Assembly: GCA_001662655.1 (NCBI GenBank)
Contig: KV460260.1
Direction: 5' to 3' (one strand)
Origin: Pseudogymnoascus verrucosus
Lineage: Eukaryota
DNA: 20,000 nucleotides
The notes below the pieces were generated by a model, which saw only the letters and a program-made list of their open reading frames with translations, made no database searches and was not told the origin of the DNA. Position numbers and translations under genes: made by a program. Shown here piece after piece: positions 100 through 6,299 of the stretch. Position 1 is the first letter of the stretch. Every line of letters begins with the position of its first letter.

Positions 100-2319
100 T
101 TAAGTTGGAACCACAAGCATTTCTAATGGTTTCACAACGAAACCATACACTTTTTGTGTAAAAGTTGTATCTTTCCAATTTAGTGTCCCGTTCAAGGGAC
201 AAGATATGCACCACCTGATGATTGGTTCCATCTTTGGTTCCTCTTCCGCGACCATCTCTAACCAGTCAATCGCACAGAGGTAATCGGTACCATCGAGTGC
301 TTTTCCGTCAGAAGATAAATGGGCCTTTCGCAGCGACTGCTGGTTTTCGATCGCTTCACCGAAACAAAGCTCAAGCAGTAACATACCAAGACAGCGGAGA
401 GTTTTGCGTGGATCTATGGGAAGAATCCCAGTAGTATTTGGCTCTTGGGAAACAGAATCGCCTGGCTTTGAGGCGACGAATTTATGACTGATATATGGTT
501 CCTCTGCAAGTATATCAGGCCCTTGGTGGTAGAAGAAAATGTTTTTCTTTTCTAGTTTCTCAGCGAGCCAGGGAGTAGCGTGTAGTTGTAACAGGGAGGA
601 GGCTACAATACTTGCTAACTTGTATCGCTTTTGTCTGCTCAGTTTCAAGTGGCCGTTGCTTGTGAGTAACTTTTCGAGGCTGATTTCCCCTAGACTCGGA
701 GGGGCTTGCCGTGTATCTTTAATCCACCGCACTTCGTGCTCCTGATGCACGTTATCTGAGAGACAACCAAAGAATTCCACATCCGGATCAAGGCCTTTCA
801 TGGCCGAGCACAAGTCTTTGATCTTGATATTGACAAGGGGCTCCTCTTTAGTCAAAGGCGGCGCTGGTGGTGGTGGCGGCGGTGTGACTAGGCAGCTTTG
901 TTGCGAGGCATCTAGACAAGGTTTCGCACCCTGGGCATTTCTAGGTTCTGTTGGCAGGTCGGGTACAAAACGAAGAGTTTTCTTGGGTTTGAATTTTGGC
1001 ATTGATATCAATTTGCTAGAAAGTGTTAGTATCTGATTCCGAAAATATATATAAAGGTTTCCGCAAAATAACTTGCCTTGAGTGTTTATCTACCAAAGTT
1101 CCTGTTCCATCTAGAATCTCGCTCTTTGGAAATATGCTTCTCAAGCTAAAGCTAGATGAGACAGAAGAGGATGATGAACGCAGACCGGGCCGAACTAGAA
1201 GGGTCGGACTGCTGACATCAGGAGGCGATTTTGGCTGAAAGTGGGTCCTCAGTTGAGTTATATATGTCTCTTCAACTAGAACAGGCTGTGTACTCTCTGG
1301 TGTTGGGGTATCTTGTGAATCTTTGGCATAGATGAGTAATTTGCGCCTCGAATTTGCTGAAGTTGGTTCTCGTTGTGGCAGTGCTAAGTTTATGATAAAC
1401 CTCGGCGGGCAATCGCTTGCTTGTCGTTTTTGCAATTGAAGGTTAGCCAAGTGGCTCACTTCGCAATTGCAGTTCCAGCTGTTTTTGATTACAGAGTGTA
1501 GAGTAGCTGCATGGCGTCTGATATTCTCAAACAATTCCCCCCAACTTGTACCGTTTGGAACAGGCTTCATGCCTTCAAAGGTGTCGTTGGTGCCGTCAAG
1601 GAGACGCAAGAGTCTCTCCAAATCCTTGATCTTCTTCTCGAGTGACTGGACGGTCCTTTTCCCATTCTCACTAAAACTAAGCTCGATTCTCTTTAACTGA
1701 TATTTCCATTGGTTCTTCCCAGAAACCGCCCAATCGACCTATGAGTCTCGAGTTAGTTGTGTAGTCACTTAGGTGGCCTTGTACTAATACATACAGTTCC
1801 ATCTTTTAAAGACATCATAGCCTGTAGATCTACCATGTCCTCATTCATTGTTCTTAGAATATCTGCCGCCACATTAGTACAGCAAAAATCCAATTGTAAA
1901 GAGAGAGATAAGGAGCTGTAGGCTGTCTCAGAAGCCTGTATACGACTACCAGGGCATCCTAAAACAAGAGAACAACTTTTAGTACGAGAATAAGACGTAC
2001 CCATGCAAGCATCATGCGCGTTCCCGAGCCGCGACCTCAAGGCCTCAACAACGTCACTCCGGTGCCAGCCTTCATAATTCGCTATCGTTAGCAGCCTCTG
2101 CTTTTCTTCTGGCTCGAGTTGTACTGGGGCCAAAAGATTTATCAGCACCAGCCTGAACATTTGCTTCTGGGTATCAACGGCGGTGATGAACTCCCGGAAG
2201 ACGAGTTTAAATAGTTTCCATCTACGCAATGGCTCAAATCCCTTCTTGTAATGCTCTCCGACGGAGATAATGAGGGGCAATCCTCCTAGGACCAGGCCGA
2301 TGACCTCAACTCCAGACAT
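100..2319 (-). CDS. Gene 1: HeLo/SesA-like N-terminal helical domain + C-terminal pseudokinase-like (DUF7580-type) protein, ~654 aa. Exons 2319-2001, 1862-1795, 1738-1077, 1015-100
   Basis: Three minus-strand ORFs join in frame (1965 nt). Introns: 2000-1863 (GTACGT..CTAAT..CAG), 1794-1739 (GTATGT..CTAAC..TAG), 1076-1016 (GCAAGT..CTAAC..TAG). The N-terminus MSGVEVIGLVLGGLPLIISVGEHY is typical of fungal helical effector domains. The C-terminus RYKLASIVASSLLQLHATPWL..KKNIFF..PYI..LGMLLLELCFG..IIRWC resembles a kinase C-lobe lacking HRD/DFG. Confidence 0.85.
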
Positions 2320-2770
2320 CGCGAGGTTAAATTAGCCTACTTCTTGATAATTTAACGTATTCTTTATATTAAGGCTGAAGAGGCTGAAGAAGAGTTCGCC
2401 TCGATTATCGCGACACTGTATTTCTATCCCTGTCTGCATGCGCCTAATACCGCAGGTGTCACACCACCATTGGTTAAGCACGCGCGAGGCGCCTCATCTC
2501 TTCGAGTTTCTCTCAGCCTTGACAAAGGCTTCTTTGTGAATGCAAATCAAATTTATCTTATCATTCCACAATCCATACCTTCTACATGAGTTGGGGGACA
2601 TACCCGCTTTCCGTCCAACAGAATCCTACGGGACACCTTTAGCGGATCAGTGATCTATACAACCTTCGAGACTAGCGCTGAATGCACTAGCTGGGAGCCT
2701 CTAAACTATTAAAAGGTACTAAAGGTAACCAGCTACCAAACTCGGATTTAAATAAGTGGTCTCTGCCAGG
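2320..2770. promoter_or_regulatory. Shared divergent (bidirectional) promoter region of genes 1 and 2
   Basis: 451 bp between the opposing ATGs at 2319(-) and 2771(+). TATAAA on the minus strand at 2368-2363 and TATTAAA on the plus strand at 2707-2713. Confidence 0.55.
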
Positions 2771-5700: not shown

Positions 5701-6299
5701 CGAAGAAAAAGGGGAAGAAGGGGAAGAAGAGAAATTATCCTTCTGAACAGGGCGAAACTGCAAAAACGTCAGAACACCAGCACAGCCTCAACTCGCCTTC
5801 TAGTGCTCAAGCCGATGACAGTTCCATAATAGACAAAACTGAGGACGATAAGCATCAGGGGCGATATTCGATAGACCGATATGTGAAAGACCCAGATTCC
5901 AAGGAAGCTATAGAGCCGGCAGCGGAATCACCAGCAAAGGAAGTGCAGATTCCCCAGGAGACAGACTCGTTAGACCGAGATTTCAAAGAAGCTGTAGAGC
6001 CAGCAGCGGAGTCATCAGCCACGGAAGTGCAGATGCCTCAGGAGCCACCCATTTTACCCCTACGACCTCGAACCCCAACCACCTCGAGGGCTTGGATATG
6101 CAAAGGTTGCGACACAGTCAACCGATCTACAAATAACTGCGCCGCGTGCAGGTACCACAAAACTCAAAGATGGGTCAAGATGATCTTCTGTAATAACTGT
6201 GGTGATGGGCCGTATCGGGCTAATAACAACATTAGCTGCGCACAGTGTTCCCAGTTTTTCGATCAGAACTGTCAGATCAAGTGGGTGCCAGCAAAGTAG
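2771..6299 (+). CDS. Gene 2: multidomain protein, ~1089 aa. N-terminal helical domain, AcuF-like C2H2 zinc-finger region, second C2H2/C4 module, BAG domain, acidic/Lys-rich linker, C-terminal Cys4 zinc ribbons. Exons 2771-3107, 3157-3904, 3955-4064, 4225-6299
   Basis: Introns 3108-3156 (GTTAGT..CTGAT..TAG), 3905-3954 (GTAAGA..CTGAC..CAG) and 4065-4224 (GTAAGA..CTAAC..TAG) give one frame (3270 nt). Splicing restores FQCPYC..WKKHIFRDLKPYVCTF..C..EWFAHEMQCHRRQWVCQHC..H..H..CPLC..HLGRHMEQLALFALP. BAG-like segment: [35 protein letters not shown]. Confidence 0.85.
4418..4443 (+). repeat. Short 9-bp coding tandem repeat (ACCTAAACA) encoding LNNLNNLN
   Basis: acctaaaca acctaaaca acctaaac read directly. 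Confidence 0.85.
5607..5654 (+). repeat. 12-bp coding tandem repeat GAACCGGTACCA x3 plus one variant copy (EPVP repeats)
   Basis: Three identical units followed by GAACCGGAACCA. Confidence 0.95.
5894..6044 (+). repeat. Internal ~67-bp duplication in gene 2 (5894-5960 and 5978-6044)
   Basis: DSKEAIEPAAESPAKEVQIPQE versus DFKEAVEPAAESSATEVQMPQE, offset by 84 nt. Confidence 0.9.

Follow-up and report, generated by a model that had tools for sequence, protein, structure and literature searches.

A stretch of 20,000 nucleotides from Pseudogymnoascus verrucosus (contig KV460260.1 of NCBI GenBank assembly GCA_001662655.1; referred to below as the window) carries at its left end two intact, divergently oriented genes, which together look like an undescribed fungal sensor-executor system. 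Gene 1 (100..2319, minus strand) encodes a 654-residue MLKL-like protein and gene 2 (2771..6299, plus strand) a 1089-residue partner protein. Our reading, held with modest confidence, is that they form a conserved two-gene module in which the MLKL-like gene 1 protein is held by a gene 2 clamp with a variable input end. The gene structures, folds, linkage, co-inheritance, passed binding prediction and fusions of the gene 2 core to NOD-like receptors (NLRs; NOD, nucleotide-binding oligomerisation domain) described below were all established computationally.

Linkage and co-inheritance of the pair

The two genes occur side by side in a range of fungi. When 17 named gene 1 homologues were compared with the 49 gene-2-family proteins listed (379-1208 residues), seven had a gene-2-family match at a neighbouring locus-tag number on contigs of equal length: V501_10347/48 and VE03_00658/59 in two Pseudogymnoascus strains, LHYA1_G006051/52 in Lachnellula hyalina, BP5553_04219/18 in Venustampulla, B7494_g5026/27 in Chlorociboria, and G7Y89_g6550/49 and G7Y89_g9938/37, two paralogous pairs in the single genome of Cudoniella acicularis. 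An eighth candidate pair, from Amylocarpus, has both genes on 61495-bp contig(s) with non-positional identifiers, and for the other nine homologues no adjacent gene-2-family protein appeared among the matches listed, an absence that means little. A metagenome scan with the gene 1 family gave 69 loci, which a 95% nucleotide-identity threshold reduced to 44 groups; 23 of these were informative, with the gene 1 N-terminus present and at least 700 nt of sequence upstream of it. The gene 2 core lay directly upstream on the opposite strand in 20 of the 23, across head-to-head gaps of 164-733 nt (1545 nt in one case, where the first exon went undetected), and in none of the 23 was it found on the same strand or downstream. 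A stricter, earlier tblastn count gave a head-to-head partner at 13 of 14 loci. None of the 19 other window open reading frames (ORFs) of at least 150 residues, used as a control, matched any metagenome locus, so that the conserved unit is the pair and not its neighbourhood.

Identity to the Lachnellula and Venustampulla proteins is 57-60% for gene 1 and 59-66% for the gene 2 core, and the pair has survived a duplication and is still present in relatives whose identity falls to 23-34%. The ATGs at 2319 and 2771 are separated by 451 bp (2320..2770), presumed to be a bidirectional promoter, in which no k-mer shared among 19 intergenic sequences exceeded shuffled controls (the commonest 6-, 7- and 8-mers were present in 11, 7 and 6 of the 19, with shuffle maxima of 12, 8 and 6).

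Paired trees were built from 22 pairs (that of the window, eight named pairs and 13 loci at which the two genes are nearly complete), leaving out seven positive locus groups with partial genes. The gene 1 and gene 2 trees have 14 of 19 splits in common, where 2000 shuffles of the labels gave 0.32 on average and never more than 4, and 13 of the 14 well-supported gene 1 splits reappear in the gene 2 tree; the Mantel r between the two is 0.978 (shuffle maximum, 0.707). The two Cudoniella pairs sit in separate clades in both trees, and the pair was therefore duplicated as a unit. Such agreement is co-inheritance and by itself no demonstration of co-evolution.

The gene 1 protein

Gene 1 is assembled from four exons (2319..2001, 1862..1795, 1738..1077 and 1015..100, minus strand, with the stop codon at 102..100), and its spliced product aligns end to end (residues 1-654) with the Pseudogymnoascus protein P0002 at 92% identity. 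The first two introns (2000..1863 and 1794..1739) are GT-AG and the third (1076..1016) is GC-AG, with the donor GCAAGT and a branch-like CTAAC; this last junction is backed by a gapless alignment across it with the Lachnellula orthologue P0003. The deposited models of the two orthologues closest to gene 1 disagree at the third intron, P0001 being short of about 61 residues and P0002 using a different junction, and because the two treat the region differently at least one of these annotations is probably wrong.

The protein starts with the Gly-containing hydrophobic stretch MSGVEVIGLVLGGLPLIISVGEHY, and residues 1-23 (2251..2319, minus strand) form the hydrophobic, Gly-containing N-terminal helix MSGVEVIGLVLGGLPLIISVGEH, in which M1, E5, G8, L11, P15, I18 and E22 are invariant among 16 homologues. 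Fold data were taken from the AlphaFold2 model of the orthologue P0002 (mean predicted local distance difference test score, pLDDT, of 60), in which long helices (residues 3-63, 88-123, 139-179 and 194-216) are followed by three strands (225-267), a Ser-rich insertion that is disordered (270-409) and a mixed alpha/beta body (410-654), with helices reaching residue 651. In the window protein, residues 195-269 (1319..1543, minus strand) comprise the last helix of the helical region and the three beta-strands, the N-lobe part of the kinase-like DUF7580, for which there is a weak Pfam match (profile positions 5-53), while residues 410-654 (103..837, minus strand) are the kinase-like (pseudokinase) body of that domain. 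DUF7580 (PF24476), matched by exon 4 (E 6.6e-13; 49.4 bits vs a gathering score of 27), is the sole Pfam match of gene 1, and its profile is matched by all 16 gene 1 homologues and by 79 of 80 family representatives.

Structural comparison points to kinases throughout. When the P0002 model was searched with VIA-align against about 48,000 PDB representatives, the best 50 matches were all kinases or pseudokinases, mostly of the tyrosine kinase-like (TKL) type, covering residues 208-654 at Z 8.7-11.4; they included BIK1 (Z 11.4), TNNI3K (11.3), CRAF, CTR1, RIPK and IRAK as well as MLKL (4btf, Z 9.3), the rat MLKL pseudokinase (9.2) and AtMLKL3 (9.2). Foldseek returned only kinases among the matches listed for this model (best E 0.018), and at E <= 0.001 it gave no match for either the gene 1 model or the gene 2 model (P0047). 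A profile of the 16 gene 1 homologues matched TNNI3K alone among PDB sequences, and weakly (E 0.75); in this alignment the invariant LQL-x-TPWL..K-x-x-I motif falls on helix E and the catalytic loop, and the HRD position reads A-E-K in the window protein, with the catalytic Asp missing. No GxGxxG or other Gly-rich loop was seen in residues 220-465 when the sequences were read by eye. Because of the A-E-K reading and the missing loop, gene 1 is best described as a pseudokinase. The position of the DFG Asp is acidic (D in most family members, E in the window protein), and on this sequence feature the pseudokinase may bind a ligand.

For the helical half, the ESM Atlas placed residues 1-220, by language-model features, nearest to clusters of HeLo (PF14479), which made up 7 of 30 matches (178 features shared, score 0.94), and by structure nearest to a cluster automatically named 'HeLo domain-containing' (TM 0.74), 55% of whose members carry DUF7580. 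Since the HeLo likeness comes from Atlas features and cluster naming, the MLKL-like layout has good support in the kinase half, whereas in the helical half it is no more than suggested.

The gene 1 family is large (8841 cluster representatives at E <= 0.001; 1524 at E <= 1e-30) and spans at least seven classes of Pezizomycotina, the ten members sampled belonging to Leotiomycetes, Dothideomycetes, Sordariomycetes, Pezizomycetes, Lecanoromycetes and others. One member, P0072 of Cadophora gregata (1634 residues), has DUF7580 at 403-597 and about 1000 further residues with no Pfam match. It may stem from a fusion of genes or from an annotation that merges them; as evidence of a fusion of gene 1 with gene 2 it was rejected, DUF7580 being all that Pfam shows in it.

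The gene 2 protein and its variable tails

Gene 2 has four exons (2771..3107, 3157..3904, 3955..4064 and 4225..6299, plus strand, with the stop codon at 6297..6299), and its product aligns end to end (residues 1-1089) with the Pseudogymnoascus protein P0007 at 80% identity. Members of the family have in common a strongly conserved front end, about 510 residues long, in which dozens of columns are invariant and beyond which the sequences cannot be aligned. This front end starts with a polar, low-confidence stretch that has no hydrophobic N-terminal helix and comprises an N-terminal helical domain (residues 17-112; 2819..3106), which contains KFKAWGTSIAAF..SLDFRLRD at residues 65-90, a conserved helical region with many invariant columns (residues 150-260; 3267..3599; SLMKLS..RDDYLKAA..HVREKYG..RRRQFLTYREEHHGKL) and an AcuF-type C2H2 zinc-finger cluster (residues 340-510; 3837..4559), which spans exons 2-4, has Cys and His columns invariant in the family and ends in the invariant FRRHLGRHMEQLALFALP. 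As a precomputed annotation, the domain zf-C2H2_AcuF (PF26082) is carried by the orthologue P0007, and 30 of the 49 gene-2-family matches listed have it too.

The fold of the front end was read from the model of a core-only paralogue, P0047 (533 residues), and not from the window protein itself: a helical domain at 14-125 (pLDDT > 90), helices at 160-249 and, at 320-420, a region of zinc fingers. Taken with helix 160-182, the bundle matched the N-terminal domain (SD) of Sw-5b (Z 11.3), the coiled-coil (CC) domain of Rx (Z 10.7, 105 residues aligned), MLKL's four-helix bundle (4HB; 4btf, Z 9.4, root-mean-square deviation 2.9, 100 residues), NRG1 CC-R (Z 8.7), AtMLKL3 (Z 8.7), MLA13 CC (Z 8.3) and HET-S (Z 7.6). 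With Foldseek the zinc fingers showed a weak resemblance to C2H2 arrays (WT1, CTCF; E >= 0.048), and an Atlas search with residues 1-260 found only unnamed ascomycete clusters (0.89). Profile-profile comparison of gene 1 with gene 2 gave no similarity (probability 0.2), and the helical N-termini of the two are hence not detectably homologous.

The tail of the window protein contains a BAG domain (residues 686-766; 5085..5327; PF02179, E 1.5e-14, 54.7 bits vs a gathering score of 23.4), acidic and proline-rich low-complexity repeats and C-terminal Cys-rich ribbons (residues 1021-1089; 6090..6296), read from the translation and with no Pfam match at E <= 0.1, whose W-x-C-x2-C..C-x2-C pattern looks RanBP2-like. 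Short tandem repeats occupy 5607-6041 (plus strand), among them EPVP units near residues 860-877 and a unit of about 22 residues (..KEA.EPAAES.A.EVQ.PQE) near residues 955-1004, present in two copies here and in three in the orthologue P0007. Against the V501 strain, exon 4 of gene 2 is 73% identical, compared with 94% for the first 399 residues and 92% for gene 1.

Tails differ widely over the family. Those of named relatives contain BAG, ULD_2, ankyrin, bZIP, RRM, KH, ARID, Zn2Cys6, bromodomain and MIT domains. When the ORFs 3' of the core were scanned in 13 pair-linked loci and their extents checked, the core ran without a stop codon into an NLR body at three distinct and distant loci: L034 (NPHP3_N and ankyrin), L042 (NACHT_N, NPHP3_N/NACHT, DUF7069 and ankyrin) and L044 (NPHP3_N, a winged-helix domain and ankyrin). 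At L059 an NB-ARC-DUF7779-TPR ORF lies 3' of the core and may belong to the same gene. Other loci carry TPR repeats (L018), RRM (L016), Myb (L014 and L015), Bud6_N with ankyrin (L002) or BAG (L037). Since it continues into NLR bodies, the gene 2 core behaves like an N-terminal signalling domain of fungal NLRs; in the clade of the window the core is attached to back ends of other kinds. Most pair-linked gene 2 proteins have no NOD, and that of the window is not a fungal NLR, BAG being the only domain matched in its Pfam scan. An unexpected tail was met at L067 (5353-8664, minus strand), where RhoGEF is fused to the core in one ORF and followed by PH and CNH, as in Rom2-type exchange factors. 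At L044 a HET-domain ORF (4726-5085, minus strand; E 4.2e-11) lies directly downstream of the NACHT-ankyrin relative of gene 2, and may be a third cluster member or a separate gene.

An earlier note on this DNA, prepared from the letters alone, had described much of this organisation. The two divergent intact genes with ATGs 451 bp apart are borne out by the gene models and the full-length alignments; the Gly-containing hydrophobic helix and non-catalytic kinase-like C-terminus that it assigned to gene 1 are there, as are the helical domain, C2H2 core and string of dissimilar C-terminal domains that it assigned to gene 2. The note is also correct, for the two genes of this window and by Pfam scan, in giving neither of them a domain of the NACHT, NB-ARC or HET kind.

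Predicted complex of the two proteins

A complex was predicted for the natural pair of one strain, the input being residues 1-268 and 412-654 of P0002 together with residues 20-508 of P0007. The interface score ipSAE was 0.76, 0.74 and 0.76 in three runs and 0.00 and 0.00 with unrelated partners; in a third control, with the gene 1 N-terminal chain replaced, it was 0.51. The prediction passed its controls, with between-run contact agreement of at least 77% and partner pLDDT of at least 71; in calibration of the tool, the mark was reached by 51 of 78 solved complexes and by 2 of 108 mismatched pairs. Two interfaces are predicted, one between gene 1 residues 35-70 and 176-184 and the gene 2 bundle (53-109 and 155-194), the other between the gene 1 C-lobe (about 590-611, and 622-626) and the gene 2 fingers (374-405 and 432-447). 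What remained of the score in the third control fits a second, independent interface of this kind. The model supports binding of gene 1 to gene 2 rather than showing it, and on its strength the two proteins probably interact physically.

Genomic surroundings

The guanine-plus-cytosine (GC) content is 0.43-0.50 in windows up to position 6500 and 0.51-0.64 in most windows to the right, the exceptions being 14001-15000 (0.47), 14501-15500 (0.49) and 16001-17000 (0.49); the composition of the pair is accordingly unlike that of the rightward genes, as had been noted earlier. From 6500 on, GC climbs from about 0.45-0.50 over the pair to 0.58-0.64 in coding stretches, a step for which codon usage, a history resembling repeat-induced point mutation or the age of the region could each be the cause. 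The right-hand neighbour (7440-10097, minus strand) is an open frame of 885 residues that contains a GRAM domain (E 1.2e-26) and a VASt domain (E 2.7e-43) and, judged by these, looks like a Lam/Ysp-type sterol-transfer protein of housekeeping type in the higher-GC flank. Further long open frames on the plus strand (12272-13951, 16945-18366 and 18351-19805) encode 473-559 residues, are GC-rich with strong strand skew and had no match in a Pfam scan; they may encode low-complexity proteins or have arisen by chance in DNA rich in GC. Over positions 1-10200, contigs of run X1 covered, as small pieces, 27 of 30 bins, those of the pair among them, and contigs of run X2 covered 15 of 30, mainly the right-hand neighbour, the uncovered parts in neither run amounting to absence.

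Discussion

We propose that both genes would be made together from their shared promoter region and that the front end of gene 2 would clamp gene 1 at two sites. At one, the helical bundle of gene 2 would grip gene 1 helix 35-70, beside the hydrophobic N-terminus, and at the other its zinc fingers would rest on the C-lobe of the pseudokinase. A trigger at the variable back end (binding of a ligand or effector, NOD-driven oligomerisation or loss of the partner) might then alter the hold, and gene 1, freed or clustered, would exert its effect by way of the N-terminal helix, with membranes as the likeliest target, in the manner of HET-S, HELLP and MLKL. The direction of signalling, the attack on membranes, cell death and any immune role are parts of this scheme that we infer.

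Several of our results weigh against it. Pfam HeLo matches none of the 16 gene 1 members even at E <= 10, and among 80 family representatives it gave one sub-threshold match (E 0.0013, 19 bits vs a cut-off of 23.2, profile positions 1-48); in the gene 1 model, pLDDT is under 50 over the first 31 residues. The gene 2 bundle matches (Z 7.6-11.3) are under the tool's caution line of about 13, within the range that helical bundles can attain through a common arrangement, and unrelated bundles (GCP4, THATCH and designed proteins) are interleaved among them. As to the complex, gene 1 was entered as two separate chains and no alignments were supplied, in both of which the job departed from the calibration, and blind neighbouring genes pass the same test in 7 of 44 cases. 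The gene 1 interface residues are no more conserved than the rest (0.50 vs 0.61 and 0.50 vs 0.55), and those of gene 2 only slightly more so (0.69 vs 0.62, a value reached by 197 of 5000 random subsets). Metagenome loci were chosen through one gene 1 motif, and linkage was counted one way, from the gene 1 homologue to its gene 2 neighbour. The partner is missing in three of the 23 informative groups, one of them with housekeeping genes upstream: L009, with a flank of 712 nt only; L054/L057, a distant DUF7580 relative with carboxyltransferase and GH17 genes upstream (L057); and L064/L065, with hardly any ORFs upstream. At L049, too, unrelated genes lie upstream of the gene 1 relative. Because of such negative loci (L057, L049, L064 and L065), pairing is a trait of a subfamily and not general to DUF7580 proteins. 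Lastly, both cores are well conserved between genera, so that a non-immune cellular role also fits.

That last point leads to the foremost of the alternatives, which we rank, from most to least probable, as a regulatory complex with no part in death, a reversal of roles, an allorecognition or selfish element, and synteny of no meaning. An ordinary two-protein complex in chaperone or stress signalling or in gene regulation, with gene 2 as a scaffold of zinc fingers and BAG and gene 1 as pseudokinase adaptor, is a serious competitor even if we think it rather unlikely. The BAG domain in the window's tail is an Hsp70 co-chaperone module, the gene 2 fingers weakly resemble DNA-binding C2H2 arrays (WT1, CTCF), many tails of the family bind nucleic acid (RRM, KH, ARID, Myb, bZIP, Zn2Cys6) and the conservation of both cores across genera would suit it. 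It sits less well with a core fused to an NACHT-type NTPase and ankyrin repeats at three loci, with an NB-ARC-TPR ORF at a fourth, or with the MLKL-type layout and invariant hydrophobic N-terminal helix of gene 1; the family is moreover large and paralogous (two pairs in one genome), and free swapping of tails would be unusual in a housekeeping complex. A smaller share of probability goes to reversed roles, whereby gene 2 and its NLR relatives would be both receptor and executor, and gene 1 a pre-bound pseudokinase adaptor or decoy reporting modification by a pathogen. An arrangement of this kind operates in plants, where the CC-NLR ZAR1 is teamed with the pseudokinases RKS1 and ZED1. The gene 2 bundle does match the CC domains of Rx, NRG1 and MLA13 and the MLKL 4HB, the NLR fusions put it where plant CC-NLRs carry their executing domain, the closest matches of the TKL-like pseudokinase include the plant receptor-like cytoplasmic kinase BIK1, and the second predicted interface involves the pseudokinase C-lobe. 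It is nonetheless gene 1 in which a hydrophobic N-terminal helix is invariant, gene 2 starting with a polar stretch that lacks one, and most pair-linked gene 2 proteins, that of the window included, have no NOD with which to oligomerise.

The earlier note had raised immunity and allorecognition together. For allorecognition specifically we find no support, and a heterokaryon-incompatibility, toxin-antidote or meiotic-drive element that is polymorphic within species appears very improbable: orthologous pairs are kept in at least six genera and co-diverge, unlike such an element, and the faster divergence of the gene 2 tail from strain V501, which together with the tight head-to-head arrangement, the GC below that of the flank and the HET-domain ORF beside the NLR-type relative at L044 might speak for one, concerns sequence that is mostly disordered, enough to explain the rate. 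Least credible of all is that adjacency is inherited synteny without function and the predicted binding a false positive. Gene order is common to related species by descent, and the pass rate of blind neighbours shows that neighbouring genes can pass the complex test; yet only the pair is conserved among the window's ORFs, it persists through deep divergence and duplication, and 20 of the 23 informative groups retain both its orientation and its short spacing. Homologues are thus divergent and adjacent far above chance, they are not single-copy core genes, and co-folding passed its controls, all of which is in keeping with the sensor-executor pair first suggested from the sequence. As regards the putative roles within it, the reading of gene 2 as sensor is strengthened by the NLR fusions.

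We return, then, to an MLKL-like protein held by a clamp. Gene 1 shares with MLKL and the plant MLKLs a layout in which a helical region at the N-terminus precedes a TKL-type pseudokinase at the C-terminus, and its catalytic Asp is absent. MLKL is, however, not the best kinase match of gene 1, being outscored by BIK1, TNNI3K and RAF; the gene 1 pseudokinase carries a disordered insertion of 140 residues, its partner is not a kinase like RIPK3 but a helical-bundle and zinc-finger protein encoded next door, and a possible likeness of the gene 1 helical region to the MLKL four-helix bundle is suggested by the helices of the whole-protein model and by Atlas features pointing to HeLo. The het-S/nwd2 and HELLP/PNT1 systems, as described in passages of one review (PMC12881547), likewise consist of adjacent genes, a protein with a critical N-terminal helix and a sensor that in some members is an NLR. 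In contrast to these systems, gene 1 ends in a folded pseudokinase and not a prion-forming domain, gene 2 starts with a helical bundle, the coupling is predicted to be direct and domain to domain, the partner in the window has no NOD, and Pfam HeLo is unmatched; no amyloid signalling motif was noticed in either window gene, no dedicated motif search having been made. ZAR1 with RKS1 or ZED1 resembles the pair in joining a receptor with a CC/4HB-like bundle to a dead TKL-type kinase; there the pseudokinase binds the leucine-rich repeats, whereas here the predicted contacts are with the N-terminal core of gene 2, and, unlike in the ZAR1 system, the gene 1 pseudokinase has a hydrophobic N-terminal helical domain of its own and the genes are head to head. 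The plant paired NLRs RGA4/RGA5 and RRS1/RPS4 are also head to head, with varied extra domains in one partner, but neither window gene is an NLR, and among relatives at most one partner is. On these analogies the logic of the module is, in our best reading, that of the known fungal sensor/executioner clusters, with new domain families and direct binding.

Regulated cell death in fungi is known from few systems, namely HET-S/NWD2, HELLP and the gasdermin/protease pairs. The literature searched yielded no mention of DUF7580 and no description of a DUF7580/AcuF-finger pair, or of a HeLo, MLKL or NLR protein paired with a pseudokinase in fungi, and the passages of two reviews and an NLR survey that were consulted mention no such pair (PMC12881547, PMC9815663, PMC10197012). 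Those review passages tie fungal death to animal necroptosis through the helical HeLo/4HB domain (PMC12881547, PMC9815663). As a broader and more tentative proposal, for which the chances are in our view somewhat short of even, Pezizomycotina may possess a widespread necroptosis-like pathway, in which MLKL-like executioners, made up of a HeLo-like helix and a DUF7580 pseudokinase, are each held by a dedicated head-to-head partner. The conserved clamp of this partner, with its helical bundle and zinc fingers, would be a new NLR N-terminal signalling domain and would link sensor modules that can be exchanged for one another (among them NOD-repeat, BAG, RRM, Myb and RhoGEF) to the executioner by direct binding and not by amyloid templating. 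If true, a fungal family with the full MLKL layout of helical domain and pseudokinase would alter the picture of the link to necroptosis, and a subfamily hard-wired to a partner that is sometimes an NLR would represent a third mode of sensor-executioner coupling in fungi and lay the origin of MLKL-type executioners open to experiment. Two large and uncharacterised Pfam families would also gain a function, DUF7580, which contains gene 1, and zf-C2H2_AcuF, which is annotated on gene 2 orthologues, and the swappable tails would amount to a natural catalogue of what the sensors watch.

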